IMG/VR virus record: IMGVR_UViG_2706796033_000001
Location: 12,272-76,271 of that record
Origin: a virus
Taxonomy: Duplodnaviria; Caudoviricetes
DNA: 64,000 nt
Direction: 5' to 3' (one strand)
Shown: piece after piece, positions 12,202-53,929 of the stretch
How positions within the stretch are numbered: position 1 is the stretch's first letter
How the letters are laid out: every line of letters begins with the position of its first letter
Position numbers and translations under genes: made by a program
The notes under the pieces: generated by a model
The model's input: only the letters and a program-made list of their open reading frames with translations
The model's database searches: none
What the model was told of the DNA's origin: nothing

Positions 12202-12351
12202 ATGATTATGGATCACGCGGGGGAGCCGGAGGTTCGCTGCGTTGCATGTGGCGACCGCAGTGTGGACCATCCCACTTTCAAGCACAGGGCTTGGAATTGG
12301 TTGGCGGCTTCCGAGGCTTTCGTGCGGTTTCACCTAGGGCGGGTGCTCTAG
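12202..12351 (+). CDS. Small hypothetical protein (CxxC)
   Basis: GAGGGG RBS, 49 aa MIMDHAGEPEVRCVACG..., stop abuts the next GTG. Confidence 0.45.
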   Translation: MIMDHAGEPEVRCVACGDRSVDHPTFKHRAWNWLAASEAFVRFHLGRVL

Positions 12352-28499: not shown

Positions 28500-29930
28500 A
28501 TGACGACGTTTTTGCAGAACCTAAGCGGACAGCTCAATACCACCCGCACGGAGAACGGCGATAAGGCGCACAAGTCGTCGCTTGATCCGGTGGTGGATTA
28601 CTTCGGCTTGGCGGGCGCTATGCGTGACCGTGCCGAGGCGAGCGCTGACCTGTTTGAGAAGGCGTTCAACGTTGACCCGCAGGCTGCCGTGCGGACCCTG
28701 TTTTATCTGCGTGATGTGCGCGGGGGCCAGGGGGAGCGCGACGTGTTCCGCGCTGGGCTTAAGCGCCTCTATGCCGTCGACCCGTACACGGCGATGGCCG
28801 TTACCGAGCATGTCCCGTTCTATGGGCGCTGGGATGACTTGTTCATCTTCGGGTCGCAGGTTCCGGCGGGCATCGGGGCGATCATTCGTGAGCAGTGGTC
28901 CGCCGACGTTGACGCTTACGAGCGCGGCGAGAAGGTCTCACTGCTGGCTAAGTGGCTGCCGTCCGATAAGAGCCGGTCGAACTTGGACCTGGCTATCGCG
29001 GTCCGCGAAATGCTGGGCCTGACTCAGCGCGAGTACCGCCAGACGCTTAGCGCGCTGCGGGGTCGTATCGACCTGCTTGAGCACGCGATGACGGAGGGCG
29101 TGTACGGCAACGTCGACTACGGCAAGATTCCGGCGCAGGCGCACCGCAAGCACGTTAAGGCGTTCCGGCGCAACGACGGTGAGCGGTACCAGGCGTTCCT
29201 AGACGCGGTGGACCGTGGCGAGGCCAAGGTGAACACGTCGACCCTGTACCCGTACGAGCTGTACGACATGGTTCGTAACGGTGACGCGGCTGCGGCTAAC
29301 ACGCTGTGGAACAACCTGCCTGACTACACGCGCCCCGGCCAGGACGCGATCGTTCTCGCGGACGTTTCAGGCTCGATGTGGGGTCGGCCTATGTCGGTGT
29401 CCGTGTCGCTGGCTTTGTACTTCGCAGAGCGCAACACAGGGCCGTATAAGGGCTACTTCATGACGTTCGCCTCTACGCCTGAGCTGGTGCAGGTGACCGG
29501 TAAGACGTTGAAGCAGAAGCTTCACGCTATCGAGCACTCGACTGGCTGGTGTGGGTCGACCGACTTGGAGGCCGCGTTTAAGGCGATCTTGCGGGCCGGT
29601 AAGCAGTCGGGCACCGTCCCGGCCACGCTCTACGTCGTGTCGGACATGCAGTTCAATCAGGCGCTTAACCACGCCGATCTGAGCGTGTTTGAGTCAGCCC
29701 GGCTGGACTTCAAGCGGGCGGGGCTTGAGCTGCCGCATGTCGTGTTCTGGAACGTCAACGCGCGCCACGATCAGCTCCCGGCCACGATCCTTGACGGGAA
29801 CGTGACGCTGGTGTCTGGCTTGGCGGCTACGACGTTCGGCATGGCCGTGGAGGGTAAGACCCCTCGTGAGCTGGTAGATGACGTGATCAACAGCGAGCGG
29901 TACTCGCGGATCAACGTTTACAGTTCCTAA
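28500..29930 (+). CDS. DUF2828-type Ro/TROVE-like RNA-binding protein with C-terminal vWA domain
   Basis: TENG, LFYLRDVRGGQGER, YGRWDDL, LLAKWLP; MIDAS DVSGSM...GSTD...SDMQF; VFWNV; AAGGAG RBS. Confidence 0.8.
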   Translation: MTTFLQNLSGQLNTTRTENGDKAHKSSLDPVVDYFGLAGAMRDRAEASADLFEKAFNVDPQAAVRTLFYLRDVRGGQGERDVFRAGLKRLYAVDPYTAMAVTEHVPFYGRWDDLFIFGSQVPAGIGAIIREQWSADVDAYERGEKVSLLAKWLPSDKSRSNLDLAIAVREMLGLTQREYRQTLSALRGRIDLLEHAMTEGVYGNVDYGKIPAQAHRKHVKAFRRNDGERYQAFLDAVDRGEAKVNTSTLYPYELYDMVRNGDAAAANTLWNNLPDYTRPGQDAIVLADVSGSMWGRPMSVSVSLALYFAERNTGPYKGYFMTFASTPELVQVTGKTLKQKLHAIEHSTGWCGSTDLEAAFKAILRAGKQSGTVPATLYVVSDMQFNQALNHADLSVFESARLDFKRAGLELPHVVFWNVNARHDQLPATILDGNVTLVSGLAATTFGMAVEGKTPRELVDDVINSERYSRINVYSS

Positions 29931-29969
29931 TGTTTCCGATACCGGGGACCGCCCCGGTATCTTTAAACA

Positions 29970-30229
29970 TGTGGACGCTAACAGCAACTAAAACTGTTTG
30001 CGGATAACAATAAAATGCGTCCAGTTAAAACGTGTGGACTCCTACAGCAATTACACTGCTTCCACTGTTAATGGCGAGGTCTGGGTTCGAGTCCCAGTAG
30101 CGGCCCTGTGTCGCTGTAGCTTAAGGGCAGAGCGCGTACGCAAAAAACGGAGTCCAGTAAGCGGCTGTGGTCACTAACAGCAATCCCTATGAAATCTGTT
30201 GCCAAAACTGATAATCAAATGTGACCAGT
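29970..30229 (+). ncRNA. Array of three stem-closed Y-RNA-like units (29970-30025, 30033-30158, 30166-30229)
   Basis: Each unit starts TGTGG-N4-T(A)ACAGCAA and ends with the complement of its own 5' stem + GT. Unit 2 contains a permuted tRNA. Confidence 0.7.
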
Positions 30230-30246
30230 CCTGCCGCGCCAGATCA

Positions 30247-30287
30247 GCCCCGTATCCAGTCTTAGCCGACTGGCCGGGGCTTTTTTG
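30247..30287 (+). terminator. Intrinsic terminator after the RNA array
   Basis: GCCCCG...CCAGTC/GACTGG...CGGGGC + TTTTTT. Confidence 0.7.
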
Positions 30288-30431
30288 TGCCCTAAGAAAG
30301 GATTTACATGCCTGGACCAATGTCCGCGCCGAACGGAAACGCGCTGATCACCTACAGCGCCGAGGCGCGTAAGAAAGCCGGTCGCACCGGCAAGACGGAA
30401 GCTGTGAAAGCCCGTAAGGGGGAGAAGAAGA

Positions 30432-36961: not shown

Positions 36962-37825
36962 GTGGCCGTTCACCTAAAGGTCTATGCCGAGAAGCTAGGC
37001 ACTCTTAACGCTGCTGCGGAGCCGTTCAAGTTCCCCGGCGGGGAGCTGCACCTTAAGAACATCTTGCCGCCAATGGACTTTGACGGCGTGACGTGGATTG
37101 CGGACGTGCGGGGCGCTGCCACCGACGACCTGATGACAGCGCTGCTGCTGGCCGACCACGCGGCGCAACAGGGCCAGCCGTTCGTGTTGTTCCTGCCGTA
37201 CCTTCCGGCTGCTCGCGCGGACCGGGGCACGCCGTTCGGCCTGCGGGTGTACGCGGACATGATCAACAACTCTGCCTATGCGGAGCATGTCATTGTCATC
37301 GACCCGCATTCGCCAGTGGCTAACCGGCTGGTTAGGAATATCTGCCCACTTGAGCCTCTGCCGCTGCTAGACCGGGCTTTGGAGAGTCAGGGCCATTGGC
37401 GGTACGACGGCATCATTGCGCCAGACAAGGGCGCGAGGGACCGGGCCGAGGCGGTCGCTAAGAACTACGGGTTAGACCTGTATGTCGCCGAAAAGGACCG
37501 CGATTTCGTGACGGGCCAGATTTACGAAATTAAGGTGCCTAACCTGCCTAAGAGCGGTAAGTACCTGGTCGTTGACGATATCTGCGACGGTGGCCGGACA
37601 TTCCTAATGCTGGCGCACGACACGTTTCTACCCAAAGAGAACATTGATCTTTGGGTTACGCACGGCATTTTTTCCGGAGCGGCTACCAACCTCCGGAATT
37701 ACTACGGGCGCATCATGACGACCGACTCTCACCCCGGCCATAACCGGGTGGGCGTGGCTACGTCGATTGTGCCGACTTTCACGTACATGCACCAGGCGAT
37801 GGTTGAGCTTAAGGGGATAGGGTGA
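36962..37825 (+). CDS. Ribose-phosphate pyrophosphokinase-like protein (Adps-like)
   Basis: FPGGE, PYLPAARADR, DPHS, APDKGA, VVDDICDGGRTF, THG. Confidence 0.85.
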   Translation: MAVHLKVYAEKLGTLNAAAEPFKFPGGELHLKNILPPMDFDGVTWIADVRGAATDDLMTALLLADHAAQQGQPFVLFLPYLPAARADRGTPFGLRVYADMINNSAYAEHVIVIDPHSPVANRLVRNICPLEPLPLLDRALESQGHWRYDGIIAPDKGARDRAEAVAKNYGLDLYVAEKDRDFVTGQIYEIKVPNLPKSGKYLVVDDICDGGRTFLMLAHDTFLPKENIDLWVTHGIFSGAATNLRNYYGRIMTTDSHPGHNRVGVATSIVPTFTYMHQAMVELKGIG

Positions 37826-39306
37826 GCACGAAGTTCGCGCCGGTCGCGGCGCTATTCGAGACGGACGCATACAAGCTGGGCCACGTCGACCAGTACGCGC
37901 TTAGCGGGAATGTGACTCGGGTGTATTCCAACTACACCAACCGTAAGTCGCGTCTGCCGGGCGTCGATAAGGTCGTGCATTTCGGGTTGCAGGCTTACAT
38001 CGCTAAGCATCTGATGGACGCGTTTGAGCCGTTCTTTGCGGCTAGGGAGAATGAGGTTGCCGCGCTTTACGAGGAGCGTGTTGCCCAGATTCTCGGGCCG
38101 GATGCAGCTCACGCGATTGGGTCGGACCATATTCGCCAGTTGCATGGGCTGGGGTTCCTGCCGCTGCGGTTCTGCGCGGTGCCTGAGGGGACGCTAGTGC
38201 CTATCGGGGTGCCGTCGTTCACGGTGGAGAACACTCACGAGTCGTTCTACTGGCTGACCAACTACATCGAGACGGGCCTTAGCGCTGGGGTCTGGCAGGC
38301 CAGCACGTCCGCGACCATCGCTAAGCAGTACCGGCGGGTGCTTGAGGCTGCGGCCTTGCGGACCGGCGCGGACCTGGCGGGCGTCGACTGGCAGTGCCAT
38401 GACTTCTCTTACCGGGGCATGTCCTCACATGAGAGCGCGGCGGCGTCGGGCGCGGCTCACCTGTTGAGCTTCACCGGTACGGACTCGCTGGTGTCGCTGG
38501 ATTGGATCGACCGCTACTACGGCGGCGACTACGTGGCGGGGTCGGTTCCGGCTACCGAGCACTCGGTGATGTGTACCGGCATTGAGACGGTCGGGGAGCT
38601 TGAGACGTTCAAGCGGCTGCTGGACCTGTACCCGTCCGGAATCGTCAGCGTCGTGTCCGACACTTTCGATCTGTGGAAGGTGCTGACCACGTACCTGCCG
38701 ACGCTGCATAAGCAGATCGTGGGCCGGGACGGCAAGCTGGTCATTCGGCCTGACTCCGGCGATCCAGAGACCATCATTTGCGGCGACGACACGAATCCTC
38801 CGGCGTCCCCGGCGGGCATGGGCGTCCTAGGTCTGCTGTATGAGCATTTCGGCGGTAAGAAGAACGCTGGGGGGTTCATTGAGCTTGACCCGCACGTGGG
38901 TGTGATCTACGGCGACTCGATCACGCTTGAGCGCGCCGAGCGCATCACCGCGCGTATGGAGCGGCTGGGTTATGCGTCGTCCAACGTGGTGTTTGGGGTC
39001 GGGTCGTTCACGTACCAGTACAACACCCGCGACACGTTCGGGTCCGCGATGAAAGCGACGTGGGCTGAGGTCGACGGCAAGGGCTACAACCTGCTTAAGA
39101 ATCCGGTGACCGACGACGGGACCAAGAGGTCCGCTACGGGCCGGTTGGCGGTGTTGGAGAACATCTGGGGCGATCTGGCGCTCAAGCAGAACGCCTCGAT
39201 TGAGGACGAGAAGGCGAGCTTGCTCCGTCCCGTTTGGGAGAACGGAAAGTTTCTAGGCCGGCAGTCGTTTGCGCAGGTCAGGGACGTTCTAGCGCGTCAG
39301 CGGTAG
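37822..39306 (+). CDS. Nicotinamide phosphoribosyltransferase-like protein (Namat-like)
   Basis: TDAYKLGH, HDFSYRG, PATEHS, VSDT, IRPDSGDP, YGDSIT, GSFTYQ. Confidence 0.9.
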   Translation: MSTKFAPVAALFETDAYKLGHVDQYALSGNVTRVYSNYTNRKSRLPGVDKVVHFGLQAYIAKHLMDAFEPFFAARENEVAALYEERVAQILGPDAAHAIGSDHIRQLHGLGFLPLRFCAVPEGTLVPIGVPSFTVENTHESFYWLTNYIETGLSAGVWQASTSATIAKQYRRVLEAAALRTGADLAGVDWQCHDFSYRGMSSHESAAASGAAHLLSFTGTDSLVSLDWIDRYYGGDYVAGSVPATEHSVMCTGIETVGELETFKRLLDLYPSGIVSVVSDTFDLWKVLTTYLPTLHKQIVGRDGKLVIRPDSGDPETIICGDDTNPPASPAGMGVLGLLYEHFGGKKNAGGFIELDPHVGVIYGDSITLERAERITARMERLGYASSNVVFGVGSFTYQYNTRDTFGSAMKATWAEVDGKGYNLLKNPVTDDGTKRSATGRLAVLENIWGDLALKQNASIEDEKASLLRPVWENGKFLGRQSFAQVRDVLARQR

Positions 39307-39313
39307 GTGAGGG

Positions 39314-39331
39314 TGTCCGACTTTTCGGACA
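39314..39331. promoter_or_regulatory. Distal copy of the immunity-region operator
   Basis: TGTCCGACTTTTCGGACA is the exact reverse complement of 22284-22301. Confidence 0.6.
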
Positions 39332-39393
39332 CTTTCGCATGTTTCCGGAGTACATGTGTTGTACTCGAATGGCGAACGAGAAAGGAGGTCACA

Positions 39394-40320
39394 ATGACGC
39401 TGACCTTAACCGCGATGCGGGGCTATCCCGGTTCGGGTAAGTCCACTAAGGCGCGGGAGATTGCAGACGCTACCGGCGCTGTTGTTGTGTGCCGGGACGA
39501 TCTGCGGATGATGCTGCACGGCACTTATTTCTCGGGCAAGAAAGAGCTTGAGGATGAGGTAACGGTTGCGGAGCGTGCGCAGGTCAGCGCGTTCCTTAAG
39601 GCTGGTATCTCGGTCGTTGTCGACGCTACGCATTTGGAGCCGTCTTACTTGCGTAAGTGGGCGAAGATGGCGAGCCAGTACGGCGCAGAGTTCAAGCGCG
39701 TCGATATCGAGACGCCCGCTAGCTACTGCATCGTCAATGACTTCAAGCGCGGCGAGGCCGGAGACCGGACTGTCGGCGCGGAAGTGATTAACCGGATGGC
39801 TAAGCGTCACCCGATTAAGAACTGGCCGAATATCCAGGCTCCTCCGACGTTCGACCCTAAGCCGGTCGAGTGGGTGCCGGGTCTGCCGGAAGCCATCATT
39901 GTCGATATCGACGGCACGGTGGCGCACATGGCGGGCCGGTCACCCTACGACTACACGCAGGTTCACACCGACACGGTTGACGAGAATGTGCGCTGGCTGG
40001 TCAACCACATGTACGAACTGGGCGATCCTGGCTGCCGGGTGCTGTTCGTGTCGGGCCGCGACGATTCCTGCCGTGAGGCGACTGAGCAGTGGTTGTGGGA
40101 GAACGGTATCTCTTACGACGAGCTGCACATGCGGCCCACTGGCGCTAAGGACGAGCGCGGCAACAAGCTGCCGGATTACCTGGTGAAGTACGACCTGTTC
40201 AACCTGAACATTCGCGGTAAGTACAACGTCCGCTTTGTGTTGGACGACCGGGACCAGGTTGTGAATCTGTGGCGGTCACTTGGCCTTAAGTGCCTGCAAG
40301 TGCAGCCGGGGGACTTCTGA
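39394..40320 (+). CDS. pnk: Polynucleotide 5'-kinase/3'-phosphatase
   Basis: GYPGSGKST P-loop, RDDLR; HAD DIDGT, SGR, DDR; AGGAGG RBS. Confidence 0.9.
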   Translation: MTLTLTAMRGYPGSGKSTKAREIADATGAVVVCRDDLRMMLHGTYFSGKKELEDEVTVAERAQVSAFLKAGISVVVDATHLEPSYLRKWAKMASQYGAEFKRVDIETPASYCIVNDFKRGEAGDRTVGAEVINRMAKRHPIKNWPNIQAPPTFDPKPVEWVPGLPEAIIVDIDGTVAHMAGRSPYDYTQVHTDTVDENVRWLVNHMYELGDPGCRVLFVSGRDDSCREATEQWLWENGISYDELHMRPTGAKDERGNKLPDYLVKYDLFNLNIRGKYNVRFVLDDRDQVVNLWRSLGLKCLQVQPGDF

Positions 40321-43521: not shown

Positions 43522-44808
43522 GTGAGCTTTGATGCTCCGGAGAACGCTAATTACGCGGCGACCATTGTTAAGTTGCCGCAGGGGGTTCTCCTAGACGGTC
43601 TGGACAACCTGGTCGGCGTGCCTATGTTCGGTTACCAGGCGCTCACCCAAAAAGAGGGCTACGAGCTGGGCGCGCTGCGCGTGCTGTTCATGGCTGAGAC
43701 TCAGCTTGACACGGAGTACGCGCGGGAAAACAACCTGTTCCGTGAGGCCACCTTGAACCGGGATGCCAGCGAGACGGGCTACCTAGAGCCGAATGCGCGC
43801 GTCAAGGCGCTCCGGCTGCGTAAGCACCAGTCGGACGCCCTGCTAATGCCGGTGGAGTCGCTGGCCTATACCGGCTACGACGTGTCGACGCTCAAGCCGG
43901 GTGACACGTTCGACAAGCTGAACGGTCACACGATCTGCCGGAAGTACGTCCCGAAGGGTAAGAAGCAGGCCACGCAGGGCCAGCCCAAGGTGCGTAAGCA
44001 GGTGGACGAGCGGCTGTTCCCGAAGCATCTGGACACGGAGCATTGGTTCCGGAATATGCACTACTTCCGCGACCCGAAGTCTGCGGTGGTGACGCAGAAG
44101 TTGCACGGTACGAGCTGGCGCGGTGGCAACGTCCCGGTTAACCGGACTAAGGGTCGGTTTGAGCGGTTCCTGAACCGTCTGGGCATTGCGACTCCGGACA
44201 CTGAGTACAAGCACGTGTTCGGCTCTCGGAATGTGGTTAAGGGCCGGTCGGAGAACAACCACTTTTACAAGGCTGACCTGTGGGCGAAGTTCGGCGAGAA
44301 GCTTGAGGGCAAGATTCCGGAGAACTTCATCATCTACGGCGAGCTGATCGGCTGGGTCAGTGAGGATGAGCCGATCCAGCGGGGCTACACGTACAACCTG
44401 CCGCCGGGGCAGTGCGAGCTTTACGTGTACCGGGTTGCGACGGTGAACCCTAAGGGTGTTATCGCGGACCTGTCATGGGAAGGTGTTAAAGACTTCTGCC
44501 GGTCGCTGGACCTTAAGACGGTCCCTGAGTTGCAGAACTTTAACAACTTCTTCGTTAACTCTGACGAGGAAGATGTGCGCGTTTCCAACTTGGGCGCTTA
44601 CTGGCTGGATAAGCGTTATGCCGACATGGATAAAGAGTGGCCGGACAAGCCGGTTCCGCTGAGTGACCGTAAGACGGTTGACGAAGGTATCTGTGTCCGT
44701 ATCGAGGGCCAGATTCCGCACGTGTTCAAGGCGAAGTCGCCTCGGTTCTTAGAGCACGAGACTAAGCAGTTGGATAAGGGAGAGGTTGACCTTGAAGCGG
44801 TGGCCTAA
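43522..44808 (+). CDS. RNA ligase (Rnl2-like)
   Basis: TQKLHGTS (motif I), GSR, IYGELIG, DEGICVR, KAKS. Confidence 0.85.
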   Translation: MSFDAPENANYAATIVKLPQGVLLDGLDNLVGVPMFGYQALTQKEGYELGALRVLFMAETQLDTEYARENNLFREATLNRDASETGYLEPNARVKALRLRKHQSDALLMPVESLAYTGYDVSTLKPGDTFDKLNGHTICRKYVPKGKKQATQGQPKVRKQVDERLFPKHLDTEHWFRNMHYFRDPKSAVVTQKLHGTSWRGGNVPVNRTKGRFERFLNRLGIATPDTEYKHVFGSRNVVKGRSENNHFYKADLWAKFGEKLEGKIPENFIIYGELIGWVSEDEPIQRGYTYNLPPGQCELYVYRVATVNPKGVIADLSWEGVKDFCRSLDLKTVPELQNFNNFFVNSDEEDVRVSNLGAYWLDKRYADMDKEWPDKPVPLSDRKTVDEGICVRIEGQIPHVFKAKSPRFLEHETKQLDKGEVDLEAVA

Positions 44809-50344: not shown

Positions 50345-50415
50345 GCTGGATTAGCTTAGTGGTCAAGCGCTGCCTTCGTAACGCAGATTCACCGGTTCGA
50401 TTCCGGTATCCAGCT
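50345..50415 (+). tRNA. tRNA-Thr(CGT)
   Basis: GCTGGAT/ATCCAGC acceptor, TTCGTAA loop, GGTTCGATTCC. Confidence 0.8.
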
Positions 50416-50602
50416 CGCAGGAAATACAACTGAATATGGGAGTAGTTATGACTGAAAAAGACCCGATCAAGGTAGCTAAGGACAAGCTTGACGTTGTGCA
50501 GGAACTTCGGGACCGCACTGCGTGGCCTAAGGCTGAGGTGCCTGAGCAGGCTAAGAAGCCCGCGAAGGTCGGTAACGCTTAGTTCGTCCCCTTCGGGGGT
50601 TT

Positions 50603-50676
50603 CTGCTTGTAGCTCAGCTTGGTAGAGCGCCCGCTTTGGGAGCGGGAGGTCGCAGGTTCAAATCCTGCTTGGCAGA
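50603..50676 (+). tRNA. tRNA-Pro(TGG)
   Basis: TAGCTCAGCTTGGTAGAGC, CCCGC-TTTGGGA-GCGGG, GGTTCAAATCC. Confidence 0.85.
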
Positions 50677-50840
50677 CGTTAGGGATTACCCCGCCTCACG
50701 GCGTGTGGCCCCTCGGTTACTGCCACCGACTGAACGGCAGCGTTGCAGATCGTATAACTGTCGTCCTGGCTGGGGTTGCGTAACACTGACCTATACCAGC
50801 TCGCTCTATGGTTCCAGGGCGTTAGGCAAAAGGGCCACAT

Positions 50841-50916
50841 AGCTCGGTAGCTCAATTGGTAGAGCAGCGGTCTCCAAAGCCGCCGGTTCCCCGTTCAAGT
50901 CGGGGCCGGGTTGCCA
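50841..50916 (+). tRNA. tRNA-Trp(CCA)
   Basis: CTCCAAA loop, GTTCAAGTC, encoded CCA. Confidence 0.9.
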
Positions 50917-51255
50917 ATGAAGTACAGGCGGTGTACTATTCTCGACATGAGATACGCCGAAGTTGAGTACCGAATCGCAGACCTGTACCGCCTACATAGG
51001 TATGACGCGTTCGCCAACCCCGATAAGGTCGGGCTTGGTCGGTGCGGCTGCGGTGAGGACATGTACTACGCCGGGCATGATCTGCATTTCGGTCGTGCGG
51101 TGGCGGCGGCGCTCAAGCTGGGTGATGAATGCCGTGCCTGCAAGGCTGAGATTTATTACCACGACGACGTTAAGCAGTGGTTCCATCGCGCCGATGTTGG
51201 CGAGCGGCCTACGTGCCGGTTTGGGGATGGCCCAGTGACGGAGCTGGTCGAATGA
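50911..51255 (+). CDS. Hypothetical Cys/His-rich protein (true start probably downstream of the tRNA)
   Basis: ORF between tRNAs. Confidence 0.4.
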   Translation: MPMKYRRCTILDMRYAEVEYRIADLYRLHRYDAFANPDKVGLGRCGCGEDMYYAGHDLHFGRAVAAALKLGDECRACKAEIYYHDDVKQWFHRADVGERPTCRFGDGPVTELVE

Positions 51256-51488
51256 GACGAGGCGACGTAAGGCGAAATTATCGGCACAGGAGGGAACACA
51301 TGAAGCGGAGTGAGCATTATGCCGAAGCGGTGCGCTTATTGGATGAGGCGAACCACGTCGGGCACACCGATGAGCTGCGCGGACTCGGGATGATGATGGC
51401 GGCGAACGCTCACGCCACACTGGCCTCGATAGAGGACTTGGCGCGCCTACAGGAGGCGGCAAACAGATTGACGTAATCGAGCAATATC

Positions 51489-51562
51489 GGCCCTCTAGCC
51501 CAATTGGTAGAGGCACAGGTTTTAGGTACCTGTCAGTGCGAGTTCGAGTCTCGCGGGGGCCA
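51489..51562 (+). tRNA. tRNA-Leu(TAG), short variable arm
   Basis: CAGGT-TTTAGGT-ACCTG, GAGTTCGAGTCTC. Confidence 0.8.
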
Positions 51563-51637
51563 CGCTTAGTAGCCTAGTGGTAAGGCAGCCGGTTGTGATC
51601 CGGTGAACCTGAGTTCGATTCTCAGCTAAAGCCACCA
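51563..51637 (+). tRNA. tRNA-His(GTG)
   Basis: GCCGG-TTGTGAT-CCGGT, GAGTTCGATTCTC, ends in CCA. Confidence 0.8.
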
Positions 51638-51711
51638 TGACCGGTAGCACAACTGGTAGTTGCGCCGCGCTCTGGACGCGGAGGTTGTTGGTTCGATCCC
51701 AGCTCGGTCAG
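51638..51711 (+). tRNA. tRNA-Gln(CTG)
   Basis: CCGCG-CTCTGGA-CGCGG, GGTTCGATCCC. Confidence 0.8.
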
Positions 51712-51782
51712 CTAGGGCAGCTCTAGCGCTAGGGCTGTCGCATTCGTCTGCTGGTGCGACGTTAAATAATAGCCAGCTCTAA

Positions 51783-51856
51783 GTGTTAGTAACCCATGTT
51801 GGCTGGGTGCCACTCTTCCAAAGTGGATTTCGCGGGTTCGATTCCTGTCTAGCACA
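51783..51856 (+). tRNA. tRNA-Gly(TCC)
   Basis: CCACT-CTTCCAA-AGTGG, GGTTCGATTCC. Confidence 0.8.
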
Positions 51857-51891
51857 CACCCACCCTGTTCTCTTGTTAGGCAGGGTCTTTA

Positions 51892-51967
51892 GCCTCGTTA
51901 GCTCAGTTGGTAGAGCTGCCGACTCTTAATCGGTAGGTCACAGGTTCAAGTCCTGTACGGGGTACCA
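51892..51967 (+). tRNA. tRNA-Lys(CTT)
   Basis: Canonical cloverleaf, CTCTTAA loop, CCA. Confidence 0.95.
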
Positions 51968-51968
51968 C

Positions 51969-52056
51969 GGAGAGTAAAGCAGCGGGGAGTCCCGCGACCA
52001 GCCTTGAAAGCTGGGAAGCCGTAATGGAGCTTGGGGATCAAGACCTCTGCTCTCCA
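51969..52056 (+). tRNA. tRNA-Ser(TGA), atypical T loop
   Basis: GGAGAG/CTCTCC acceptor, CCAGC-CTTGAAA-GCTGG, long variable arm, T loop ATCAAGA. Confidence 0.65.
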
Positions 52057-52098
52057 CTTTGAGAAACGTACTCATGCTGACTTACTTGGGGGTGGTGG

Positions 52099-52803
52099 GT
52101 GTCTGAGGTTAAGAGCATCTACGGCACCCGGTCGTCTAAGTTCTGGACGGAAGCGCCGGGCAAGATGGACATGTCCAATTTCCGGATGATTTTCCCGTCG
52201 TCTAACGAGTTCGGGTTTCCTGATCTTGCGTGTGAGACGTGGGTACCGGGTGATCTTGGGGCGTGGCATTTGCCGCGTCAACGTGAGCGTGCAGCCAAGA
52301 GTGACGGTGCTGTGCATTTCTTCATTGATGACTACCGTTTCGAGACGGCGTTTACTAGCCCAGAGCGCACGCTGCCGCGTGTTCAGGCCGTGGGTGGGGC
52401 GTTGACCCCTGATTTCAGTTGGTGGCGCTCTGTGCCGCGTGTAGCCCAGATGTGGCAGACGTATCGGTCTCGGTGGTGTGGCGCGTTCTGGCAGGCGAAT
52501 GGTGTGCGGGTGGTTCCGACGTTGAATTGGGGCGGGCCGGAGTCGTTCGACTTCTGCTTTAAGGGCATTCCGCAGGGGAATGTGGTGGCGATTTCTGCGC
52601 TTGGTGTTCGCGCTAAGGATGAGGCTGAGCCGTTCAGGCTTGGGTTCAGTGAGATGCTGGCCCAGCTCGCTCCGTCGACTGTGGTGTCTTACGGCAAGCT
52701 CCGGTTTGTTGACGACCTGGTTGACGGTGTTCCGGTTCGGGAGTATCCGACGTTTTGGGATGAGCGTCGGACTGTGGTCGGTAGGCGGCGGCGCAGTGGG
52801 TAA
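52099..52803 (+). CDS. DUF4417-like protein
   Basis: VHFFIDDYRFE, LTPDFS, YRSRW.GA.WQ.NG..V.PT..WG...SFDFCF.GIP. Confidence 0.8.
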   Translation: MSEVKSIYGTRSSKFWTEAPGKMDMSNFRMIFPSSNEFGFPDLACETWVPGDLGAWHLPRQRERAAKSDGAVHFFIDDYRFETAFTSPERTLPRVQAVGGALTPDFSWWRSVPRVAQMWQTYRSRWCGAFWQANGVRVVPTLNWGGPESFDFCFKGIPQGNVVAISALGVRAKDEAEPFRLGFSEMLAQLAPSTVVSYGKLRFVDDLVDGVPVREYPTFWDERRTVVGRRRRSG

Positions 52804-53146
52804 GCGTGGCGGTTCGGCGGGCGTTGGTGGTACGTCGCCTCGGTTGGTGACGCTGTATCACAGGACTTCCGCTAGTGCGGCGCGTGACATTGTGGATCGT
52901 GGGTTTCAGCCTCAGTATCGGCCTGGCGTGGATAAGTCTTATCGGGATGAGAACTCGCAGTATGGGTTTTTTACTAAGTCGGTTAAGGGCCAGGAGGGTT
53001 ACGGCCAGAGTGTTGTGGCTGTGCAGGTTCCGAAGTCGGCTGTTGAGCATGATCCGTGGTCGGGTCATGCTCGGGTGAAGGTTGAGGAGCTTAGAAAAGC
53101 AAACTTCCGGCACTATGAGGGTAAGCGCCGGAAGAAGCGATCTTAA
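52796..53146 (+). CDS. MGKRGG-start protein with ADP-ribosyltransferase-like LYH.T motif
   Basis: GTG overlapping the DUF4417 stop; TLYHRTS..AARDI...GF...GFFT...YG..VV.V. Confidence 0.55.
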   Translation: MGKRGGSAGVGGTSPRLVTLYHRTSASAARDIVDRGFQPQYRPGVDKSYRDENSQYGFFTKSVKGQEGYGQSVVAVQVPKSAVEHDPWSGHARVKVEELRKANFRHYEGKRRKKRS

Positions 53147-53151
53147 GTTGT

Positions 53152-53226
53152 GCCGTCATGGCTGAGTGGTTAGGCGTCGGACTGCAAATCCGGCTTATCC
53201 CAGTTCGATTCTGGGTGGCGGCTCCA
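53152..53226 (+). tRNA. tRNA-Cys(GCA)
   Basis: CGGA-CTGCAAA-TCCG, GTTCGATTC, CCA. Confidence 0.9.
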
Positions 53227-53586
53227 TTCGCAGGTATGCCCTACGGGTAGCTCTACGTAGTTGCGTAGGCACTTAGGGCATATCGCAAGGCTCCATGAGC
53301 TAGTGGCCATCGTCCCAGTCGTTCGGCTTGATGATGCCCTTACGCATGAGCCAGCCCTTGAGTTTGAAGTAGGCACCTACGGGCCACAGGAAACGGCCCA
53401 GACCGGCCCAGCCGGGTTCGATATCGTCGTGGTTGCTGCTCATTCTTCTTCCATCCAGACAACCGAGTCGGGCAGGATGCCCTGTAGGTTTTTGACGAGA
53501 CTGCTTGCCTTAGCGTGGTTAAGTCCGTCGAGGACGAACCGGTCGTCGTCTATGGCGTCTTTCATCCAGACTGCCCACATGTTTAT

Positions 53587-53659
53587 TCCTCCGTAGCTCA
53601 ATTGGCAGAGCGCGCGACTGTTAATCGCGTGGTTGGTGGTTCGAGTCCACCCGTTGGAG
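53587..53659 (+). tRNA. tRNA-Asn(GTT)
   Basis: CGCGA-CTGTTAA-TCGCG, GGTTCGAGTCC. Confidence 0.9.
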
Positions 53660-53661
53660 CT

Positions 53662-53853
53662 TTATTGGCGTTTAATCGTCACGCTGGCTGTGTGGCCGTG
53701 TTTCTCGATTTCGTGCTGTACCGCTTCGGCGGCTAGTTCACGTATGAAGGTCTTAGCGGTGAGTGGGCCGACGAGCTTAAAGTCCTCTATCCACTTGTCT
53801 AGGTCCATTGTGCAGACGAGGGTGATGAGGAATTGGCCTTTAGGGCGTTGCAT
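53662..53853 (-). CDS. Hypothetical protein
   Basis: Short leftward ORF directly downstream of tRNA-Lys(TTT). Confidence 0.4.
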   Translation of the reverse strand: MQRPKGQFLITLVCTMDLDKWIEDFKLVGPLTAKTFIRELAAEAVQHEIEKHGHTASVTIKRQ

Positions 53854-53856
53854 GGG

Positions 53857-53929
53857 TGCCCCCACAAGGGATCGAACCTTGGACCCGATGATTAAAAGTC
53901 ACCTGCTCTACCAACTGAGCTATAGGGGC
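53857..53929 (-). tRNA. tRNA-Lys(TTT), leftward
   Basis: GCCCCTATAGCTCAGTTGGTAGAGC...CTTTTAA...GGTTCGATCC...GGGGGCA; TACACT -10 at 53939-53944. Confidence 0.9.

Follow-up and report, generated by a model that had tools for sequence, protein, structure and literature searches.

A probable YrlA-class Y RNA in a three-unit array downstream of a Ro60-fold protein gene in a cluster L-type mycobacteriophage

Which RNA is encoded in the 377-nucleotide (nt) gap 3′ of the open reading frame 28500–29930 (plus strand, 476 residues) of a mycobacteriophage: a tRNA, the relic of tRNA genes, or a Y RNA? The DNA is a 64,000-nt stretch of a Caudoviricetes virus (IMG/VR record IMGVR_UViG_2706796033_000001, positions 12,272 to 76,271; hereafter the window, in whose own numbering coordinates are given). 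The array in question consists of three RNA units between a Ro-like protein gene and a terminator-like hairpin, and the tRNA-like module lies in the middle one (unit 2). We conclude that unit 2 is very probably a YrlA-class Y RNA of a cluster L-type mycobacteriophage, composed of a handle stem and a permuted tRNA body. A preliminary description of the DNA had proposed a tRNA mimic like YrlA, in which a T arm is followed by a closed acceptor and a D arm, and this was borne out by the structure, by covariation among relatives, and by matches to the YrlA model.

Structure, conservation, and protein partner of unit 2

The region 29900–30320 is 100% identical to Mycobacterium phage Bazzle and matches 85 phage records, all of Mycobacterium phages; the phage carrying unit 2 is a cluster L-type mycobacteriophage. 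Relatives were fetched from the subfamily Lclasvirinae (genera Faithunavirus, Bronvirus, Lumosvirus, and Bromdenvirus). The association of the RNAs with the gene is constant: the three-unit array lies between the Ro-like gene and the terminator in all 16 cluster L-type loci, the window included, with unit 2 of the window on the same strand as the gene and 105 nt downstream of it. Each of the three units starts with TGTGGNC...NACAGCAA and ends with ...GNCCAG. A middle unit with a T arm, a closed hairpin, and a D arm is present in 16 of 16 sequences, and these sequences differ by subgroup. In phage Crossroads (L003:283-413; handles of this kind denote the collected loci), the flanks are Faithunavirus-like while the acceptor-like hairpin, with its GNRA-closed inner helix, and the D arm resemble those of Bromden (L006:321-449), which suggests that parts of the module have been exchanged between subgroups by recombination.

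The preliminary description had resolved positions 30062–30140 into a small hairpin, a T arm, a closed acceptor-like stem, and a D arm, and every part lies where that description had placed it (Table 1). It had also pointed to two words common to unit 2 and the tRNA-Asn of the same phage (53587–53660). Both of these, GGCAGAGCGCG and ACTGTTAAT, are present, and GGTTCGAGTCC is a further one. Unit 2 has ten 8-mers in common with the tRNA-Asn and 0–2 with each of the other ten phage tRNAs. The anticodon loop, the T loop, the 3′ strand of the D stem, G26, and positions 27–28 are identical to those of this tRNA-Asn(GUU). The differences are that unit 2 is permuted, that its loop-closed acceptor is of unrelated sequence, and that its anticodon stem is nicked into 3 and 2 base pairs (bp).

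To assess the helices, 11 related phage units were aligned with MAFFT, with no structure imposed on the alignment, and pairs were counted. Paired cells amounted to 92.8%, compared with 78.4 ± 1.5% in shuffles (none of 500 reached the observed value) and 29–45% with slid partners. The T stem was 100% paired with compensatory pairs at three of five positions, the acceptor-like hairpin 98.7% with six of seven, the D stem 100%, and the closing stem of unit 2 100% with two compensatory pairs. The small hairpin at 30062–30074 was paired in only 51.5% of cells because it is present in only some of the relatives. All helices of the tRNA-like core, and the closing stem with them, are supported by covariation in this unfitted alignment. 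The length and sequence of the acceptor-like hairpin vary widely among relatives. Positions 15 and 48 were complementary in 18 of 18 parsed rows (A:T in eight, G:C in eight, and T:A in two; A15:U48 in the window); the Levitt pair, a tertiary contact expected of YrlA, thus covaries in unit 2 and its relatives.

The Infernal search with the YrlA model (RF02553), which the preliminary description had suggested, matched the T–acceptor–D core at 30080–30133 with 20.2 bits (E value of 0.1 in a 501-base search, model positions 30–81 of 114), and this score is below the gathering score of 69 bits. Among the 11 related loci, nine gave a match of 21.6–39.8 bits (best E value of 3.8e-6, four over the full model), and two (L010 and L012) gave none. 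More distant loci were also matched (L043, 47.2; L130, 45.7; L065, 44.5; L029, 28.3; L039, 24.9 bits). At the Rfam gathering thresholds, only the 11 tRNAs were found in the window.

Chen et al. (2014, PMC4201824) reported YrlA from 254 bacterial species and 22 phages, next to Ro60 and on its strand; their survey was limited to genomes with an annotated TROVE protein. Table S2 of that paper lists Bacillus phage G, Caulobacter phage CcrColossus (with three YrlAs), and 20 mycobacteriophages, none of them cluster L-type. These 20 encode a Ro of 552 residues, and their YrlA is 159–160 nt from the Ro gene, on its upstream side by coordinates (Chen et al., 2014). With YrlA, that of the cluster C-type phage ET08 included, unit 2 shares an adjacent gene of (predicted) Ro60 fold on the same strand, the order of variable loop, T arm, closed acceptor, UA, and D arm, the conserved bases of the T and D loops, the 15:48 covariation, and a terminal stem that brings both ends together. 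Actinobacterial and ET08 YrlA also have the small hairpin in front of the T arm, and the acceptor stem has 7 bp as in Mycobacterium smegmatis. YrlA is further characterized by its binding to the Ro60 protein and by pseudouridine 55 and dihydrouridine. In contrast to YrlA, the partner belongs by sequence to DUF2828/DUF7788 rather than to TROVE plus vWA_Ro60, the RNA lies downstream of the gene and in the middle of an array (upstream in the mycobacteriophages of Chen et al.), the scores are below the Rfam threshold, and the 5′ motif is NACAGCAA instead of GNCGAAN0-1G, which is thought to contact Ro60. YrlB and other short Y RNAs are described as encoded in tandem with YrlA and, in M. smegmatis, as processed from one precursor (Chen et al., 2014). 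Units 1 and 3 of the array may play this part, although they differ in sharing the signature of a stem plus ACAGCAA with unit 2.

The protein encoded upstream of the array matched the Pfam families DUF7788 (E value of 3.6e-30) and DUF2828 (3.1e-28), with weak vWA matches. An AlphaFold2 model built from 37 sequences had a predicted local distance difference test score of 84.5 and a predicted template modeling (TM) score of 0.75. In a Foldseek comparison of this model with the PDB, ranks 1–13 were all Ro60/TROVE structures, from Thermus phage phiLo, Xenopus, human, and Deinococcus (Rsr), with E values of 6.9e-8 to 6.6e-5, 473–568 aligned columns, and TM scores of 0.35–0.60; vWA-only proteins came next. 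The model thus predicts a Ro60 fold over the whole length, with a ring of helical repeats and a vWA domain, and this predicted fold justifies the label “Ro-like RNA binding protein” that GenBank gives to the relatives. The partner is therefore of the Ro60 fold by predicted structure and DUF2828/DUF7788, not TROVE, by sequence; it may or may not be an ortholog of Ro60, such as is expected within about 4 kb of a YrlA gene and on the same strand. Overexpression of a close homologue, LeBron gp53, is reported as toxic (PMC13148394).

Several observations weigh against placing unit 2 and its partner with YrlA and Ro60. The gathering score was reached by no match in the window or in relatives (highest 47.2 bits). 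The best partial YrlA match in the phage genome was the tRNA-Leu/tRNA-His junction at 51537–51586 (25 bits), with unit 2 second; the Rfam score by itself is thus not discriminating, and the family assignment rests on anatomy and context. The YrlA 5′ motif GNCGAAN0-1G was not found in 29931–30310; only a relaxed form, GGCGAGG, is present at 30073 in the region of the anticodon stem and variable loop, and the 5′ position is held by NACAGCAA. The folding energies of unit 2 (z −0.02) and of its core 30081–30133 (z −0.04) were no better than those of shuffles, and the same applied to the small-hairpin region 30058–30080 (−2.5 kcal/mol, z +0.42); we therefore relied on the comparison with relatives. 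Ten IMG/VR loci (L032–L038, L044, L045, and L048), with proteins 57–62% identical, have arrays without the tRNA-like module, and the module is therefore dispensable for the system. On the protein side, Pfam at E ≤ 10 returned only DUF7788, DUF2828, VWA_2, and VWA_CoxE, with neither TROVE (PF05731) nor vWA_Ro60 (PF25045), while the true Ro of phage ET08 (gp220) matched both of the latter. An hhalign comparison with the ET08 Ro aligned only a vWA metal-site stretch (31 columns, 46% probability), and phmmer and profile searches of the PDB sequences with the partner protein gave nothing meaningful.

Table 1 Features of the array and its surroundings (window coordinates unless a locus handle is given).
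Feature	Position	Strand	Remarks
Ro60-fold protein gene	28500..29930	+	476 residues; predicted helical ring domain and vWA; Pfam DUF2828 and DUF7788
Perfect 10-bp hairpin right after the stop codon	29938..29961	+	−19.7 kcal/mol, z −4.59
Array unit 1, short Y-like RNA	29972..30023	+	7-bp closing stem, motif AACAGCAA, variable insert; z −2.37
Array unit 2, YrlA-type RNA (probable)	30035..30156	+	122 nt; 8-bp closing stem, 30035–42 with 30149–56
TACAGCAA motif, directly 3′ of the 5′ strand of the closing stem	30043..30050	+	putative docking signature for the Ro-like protein
Anticodon-arm-like hairpin CCA-CUGUUAA-UGG	30062..30074	+	CCA 30062–64, loop CTGTTAA 30065–71, TGG 30072–74; tRNA positions 29–41
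CGAGGT segment	30075–80	+	between small hairpin and T arm
CG (positions 42–43)	30075..30076	+	pairs with CG 30135–30136 (positions 27–28); top of the nicked anticodon stem
Variable loop AGGU	30077..30080	+	last base U48 matches D-loop A15 (Levitt pair)
T arm CUGGG-UUCGAGU-CCCAG	30081..30097	+	5-bp stem, kept in relatives
Closed acceptor-like hairpin TAGCGGC-CCTGT-GTCGCTG	30098..30116	+	7 bp, two of them G-U; loop CCUGU
UA (positions 8–9), D arm GCUU-AAGGGCA-GAGC, and G26	30117..30134	+	TA 30117–18, D arm 30119–33
Array unit 3, short Y-like RNA	30168..30227	+	7-bp closing stem UGGUCAC/GUGACCA, motif AACAGCAA
Intrinsic-terminator-like hairpin	30247..30286	+	GCCCCG...CGGGGC, then UUUUUU; −30.6 kcal/mol, z −4.49
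Units with a whole tRNA	L084:1238-1332, L086:1136-1246, L096:1264-1374, L110:901-1010, L128:851-949		ARAGORN: Phe, Thr, Leu, Arg, and Phe, respectively

The terminator-like hairpin is the end of the block formed by the Ro-like gene and the array; the consensus terminator scan missed it. The hairpin right after the stop codon, which has a counterpart at the same place in relatives, may be a processing site or an attenuator.

The small hairpin and the point of permutation

What does the small hairpin 5′ of the T arm represent? From all loci, 31 distinct modules of this part order were parsed, a few of which may be false positives. The two bases 3′ of the hairpin (tRNA positions 42–43) were compared with the dinucleotide that begins one base beyond the D stem (positions 27–28). 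At least two contiguous pairs form here in 29 of the 31 modules, in 13 sequence combinations; by our own arithmetic, with two registers tried, the chance level is about 0.26. The combination is CG/CG in the window and AG/CT in phage ET08. In the seed alignment of Chen et al. (2014) it was read by eye as AA/TT in M. smegmatis, GC/GT in Gordonia, and GG/CC in Streptosporangium. In the parsed modules, the two bases 3′ of the hairpin are followed by a loop of 4–5 nt, which ends at the base matching D-loop position 15, and then by the T stem.

The hairpin itself is present in 16 of the 31 modules and always ends exactly at position 41, with a loop of 7 nt (8 nt in two). In 15 of these 16, or in 10 of the 11 distinct loops, loop position 2 is T and loop position 6 a purine. 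These regularities of sequence suggest that the hairpin and the two inter-strand pairs would add up to one stem of 5 bp under an anticodon-type loop, with the break falling between positions 28 and 29. Where the hairpin is missing (15 modules), pairing between the two strands makes up the entire anticodon stem, as in Salmonella YrlA (S. Typhimurium structure, bioRxiv 10.1101/312249). The preliminary description had proposed a tRNA opened between the D and anticodon arms; this is supported, with the break now placed within the 5′ strand of the anticodon stem, at nt 28/29. Circular permutation is the published description of YrlA, perhaps derived from dimeric tRNA transcripts (bioRxiv 10.1101/312249), so that this reading of unit 2 is supported but not new.

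Two further proposals of the preliminary description did not hold. It had seen an Asn(GUU) anticodon loop as a kept feature. The triplet is GUU in Bazzle, Wilder, and Tourach, GGU in Zakai and Crossroads (with an 8-nt loop in Crossroads), and GAU in CELFI, Bromden, DyoEdafos, and Chaser. The hairpin is present in Faithunavirus-type and most Bromdenvirus-type phages and absent from two subgroups, the Bronvirus and Lumosvirus types, as well as from Douge. It had also treated this anticodon loop as unusual for a canonical YrlA, and the same hairpin of 3 bp and 7 nt stands in the published YrlA seed alignment: CCA-CTTCTAA-TGG in M. smegmatis, CCA-CTCATAA-TGG in Gordonia, CGC-CTTCTAA-GCG in Streptosporangium, and CTC-ATTGAAA-GAG in phage ET08 (Chen et al., 2014, PMC4201824, Supplementary text 1). 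That paper names it the V stem-loop and equates it with the variable arm. The V stem-loop is thus already part of known YrlAs, and the hairpin of unit 2 is therefore neither new nor a departure from canonical YrlA. By our comparison, a nicked anticodon arm may be the better reading of the “V” stem-loop in actinobacterial YrlA.

Alternative explanations

Could unit 2 instead be a real, if odd, tRNA gene? GenBank annotates the equivalent place as tRNA-Asn in Wilder and Gardann and as tRNA-Thr in Zakai, the Rfam tRNA model aligns 30038–30105 with its anticodon-loop and T-arm columns, and the ten 8-mers common to unit 2 and the phage tRNA-Asn fit such a gene, whose cloverleaf would span about 30036–30106. 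However, the score for the Rfam tRNA model (RF00005) was 15.0 bits against a gathering score of 29, with the acceptor pairs flagged as non-standard, and ARAGORN made no call at this place in the window or in Wilder, Zakai, Crossroads, CELFI, Appletree2, or Snenia. The segment needed as the 5′ acceptor strand is instead a perfect partner of 30149–56, CELFI, Bromden, and DyoEdafos have lost the AGCA/UGCU pairing needed as the D arm, and near relatives differ in the anticodon. The tRNA-gene explanation is already largely refuted, and we give it hardly any credence. The variant of a tRNA with an insertion, with the closing stem as acceptor and AGCA/UGCU as the D arm, was also tried and rejected: this D arm is unconserved beyond the closest relatives. 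The tRNA-Asn and tRNA-Thr calls in several phage records (L001:434-504 in Wilder, L002:434-504 in Zakai, and also Gardann) look like misannotated YrlA-type units. A decaying remnant of two tandem tRNA genes, made of the T arm of the first and the D arm of the second and lacking a function of its own, is another possibility. The origin of YrlA from dimeric tRNAs is a published model (bioRxiv 10.1101/312249), and the resemblance to tRNA-Asn, together with the match of the YrlA model to a true tRNA–tRNA junction in this genome, would agree with it. A mere remnant is nonetheless very unlikely, given that a closed helix, with pairing kept at six of seven compensatory positions, separates the T and D arms, that the unit keeps its closing stem and motif, and that the module turns up again next to DUF2828 genes, from Actinobacteria to Saccharibacteria and Clostridia. 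A remnant free of selection would be expected to change as fast in paired as in unpaired columns, contrary to the pattern in the alignment of 11 units.

The third alternative keeps the structure and refines the function: displayed on the protein scaffold, the unit could act as a decoy or bait, aimed at host enzymes attacking or reading the anticodon loops of tRNAs, and not as an adaptor for an RNA-decay or repair enzyme. The conserved U at loop position 2 and purine at position 6, kept while the “anticodon” varies, speak for a decoy. So do the short inserts of related arrays, of which 107 of 156 distinct ones contain a hairpin of at least 4 bp with a 7-nt loop, compared with 39 of 156 after shuffling; the U2/purine-6 signature occurs in 40 of these 107 and in 6 of the 39, although in such A/T-rich inserts loop statistics are weak evidence. 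Some units of Clostridia carry whole tRNAs, and the phage has tRNA-repair enzymes. On the other hand, nearly half of the modules (15 of 31) lack the hairpin, and the 16 that have it, with their 11 distinct loops, are not independent of one another. We regard the decoy function as rather unlikely.

Related arrays and the possible role of the Ro-like system

Is the array of the window an isolated case? The docking signature of a YrlA-class unit 2 would be its closing stem plus NACAGCAA, in place of the GNCGAA of YrlA; CAGCAA is invariant in 19 of 19 aligned units. Loci encoding relatives of the partner protein were fetched (33 from IMG/VR and 80 from genomes), and units were sought as NCAGCRA within 3 nt after a strand able to pair, over at least 7 bp, with a segment 20–190 nt downstream. 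In the viral loci, the finder returned 80 units downstream of the gene on the gene strand and 5 on the opposite strand. In the genome loci, it returned 195 units upstream and 34 downstream on the gene strand, compared with 11 and 8 on the opposite strand. At least one unit was present downstream of the gene in 27 of the 33 viral loci and on either side in 73 of the 80 genome loci. The motif ACAGCAA was similarly biased to the gene strand (62 vs 0 in viral loci, downstream; 162 vs 4 in genomes, upstream; 37 vs 6 in genomes, downstream), and the closing helix was present at 299 of 406 motif sites compared with 757 of 4,520 random sites. By their record titles, the genome loci belong to Clostridia, Synergistota, Saccharibacteria, Myxococcota, Treponema, Actinobacteria, and others. 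In seven viral loci whose proteins are distant (27–40% identity; L050–L056), the 450 nt downstream held no array.

The arrays (L024–L049 and L058–L137) comprise 2 to about 10 units, each with the stem, NACAGCAA, a variable insert, and a conserved G after the 3′ strand; in actinophages they follow the gene, and in Clostridia-type genomes they mostly precede it. The inserts range from short hairpins and lone T arms to modules of YrlA order and whole tRNAs. Five Clostridia-type loci have whole tRNAs of normal order, as called by ARAGORN, inside units with the stem and ACAGCAA (Table 1), where a handle seems to have been added onto a tRNA. The short units often hold a hairpin of 4–6 bp with the 7-nt loop CUNNUAA, similar to an anticodon loop, as at L004:418-472 (UUUCA-CUGUUAA-UGAAA), L007:460-514, and L032:2685-2743. 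On a low-GC viral contig, a transfer-messenger RNA gene (L047:664-1095, minus strand; 72 bits in Rfam) is located just upstream of a DUF2828 gene, and three of the five units of that array have tRNA-like modules, one of which is extended by a long insertion within its acceptor stem. No Rfam family covers the stem-plus-motif unit in the window or the further loci scanned.

A literature search on Ro-like and Y RNA phage arrays, with subscription journals mostly outside its range, yielded no account of Y RNAs from cluster L phages or of arrayed RNAs next to DUF2828 genes. What is new here is the cluster L-type group of host phages, the partner from a different Ro-like family, the docking signature of stem plus NACAGCAA, and the type of array, which was not found described. 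We tentatively raise the possibility that the DUF2828/DUF7788 Ro60-fold proteins of many phyla and phages, with their own arrayed small RNAs of stem plus NACAGCAA, constitute an undescribed second Ro/Y lineage that displays tRNA parts as adaptors or decoys in conflicts over tRNA. On display would be complete tRNAs, permuted ones whose anticodon arm is nicked, T arms by themselves, and hairpins resembling anticodon loops.

The Class I RNAs of dictyostelids (RF01414) are similar in having a short terminal stem, CCUUACAGCAA directly after its 5′ strand, a variable remainder, and clustered genes, and they are reported as unique to dictyostelids (Kjellin et al., 2021, PMC7919456). The RF01414 model scored 18.9 bits on the 5′ part of unit 2 (GGACUCCU-ACAGCAAUUA, 30037–30083), below its gathering score of 41.5 and with the wrong 3′ partner in the alignment, and gave no match at E ≤ 10 on six other loci with many units. 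A search with a DUF2828 protein of the giant-virus type returned no named eukaryotic protein among the best 120. This is a resemblance only, and that the Class I RNAs, with their stem plus CCUUACAGCAA, are eukaryotic relatives of a second Ro/Y lineage is much less likely than that lineage itself.

How might the system work? By analogy with Ro60 and its Y RNAs, the 8-bp closing stem and the immediately following UACAGCAA would dock unit 2 on the Ro60-fold protein encoded upstream. The second module would be the permuted tRNA body, made up of the variable loop, T arm, loop-closed acceptor stem, and D arm, plus the nicked anticodon arm, which would take 3 bp and the 7-nt loop from the local hairpin and 2 bp from pairing with the strand leaving the D arm. 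The three units are presumably transcribed with the Ro-like gene or just after it, up to the terminator; a look-up of sequencing runs for 29931–30300 listed no RNA run and a single DNA run with a small share. The acceptor stem is probably cut by RNase P and tailed with CCA, as judged from the YrlA of the host: M. smegmatis YrlA, with an acceptor stem of 7 bp, is bound by Rsr, cut by RNase P in the acceptor loop, and given a CCA end in vivo (Chen et al., 2014), and cutting of unit 2 is predicted because its acceptor stem has the same 7 bp. Cutting of the acceptor loop, which the preliminary description had brought up for unit 2, is thus not a new proposal, having been shown already for the host RNA.

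The tRNA-like body may recruit or occupy a factor that recognizes tRNA; in a comparable arrangement, a Y RNA tethers Ro60 to PNPase in Deinococcus and Salmonella (Chen et al., 2014). A role in the quality control of tRNA or RNA, or in a tRNA-directed conflict with the host, is probable. The window also encodes RNA-repair enzymes, namely a polynucleotide kinase-phosphatase (39307–40320) and an RNA ligase (43522–44808), as well as a nicotinate phosphoribosyltransferase-family protein (37822–39306), and 11 tRNA genes are clustered at 50345–53929. This set of genes fits a role in tRNA damage and repair during infection. As a toolkit, it resembles known phage answers to tRNA cleavage and NAD depletion. 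The Ro60 and Y RNA genes of Salmonella are located in an RNA-repair operon (PMC7790460).

The locus connects DUF2828/DUF7788, a large family of unknown function (more than 6000 proteins at E ≤ 0.001 among 8000 candidates), with the predicted Ro60 fold and a specific RNA signature, and the signature of stem plus motif is usable for annotating many small RNA genes. Y RNAs and Ro60 are conserved from bacteria to humans. For the question of what the tRNA-like part of bacterial Y RNAs does, the locus is tractable, as the phage grows on M. smegmatis mc2 155, a host whose own YrlA is known to undergo tRNA-like processing.

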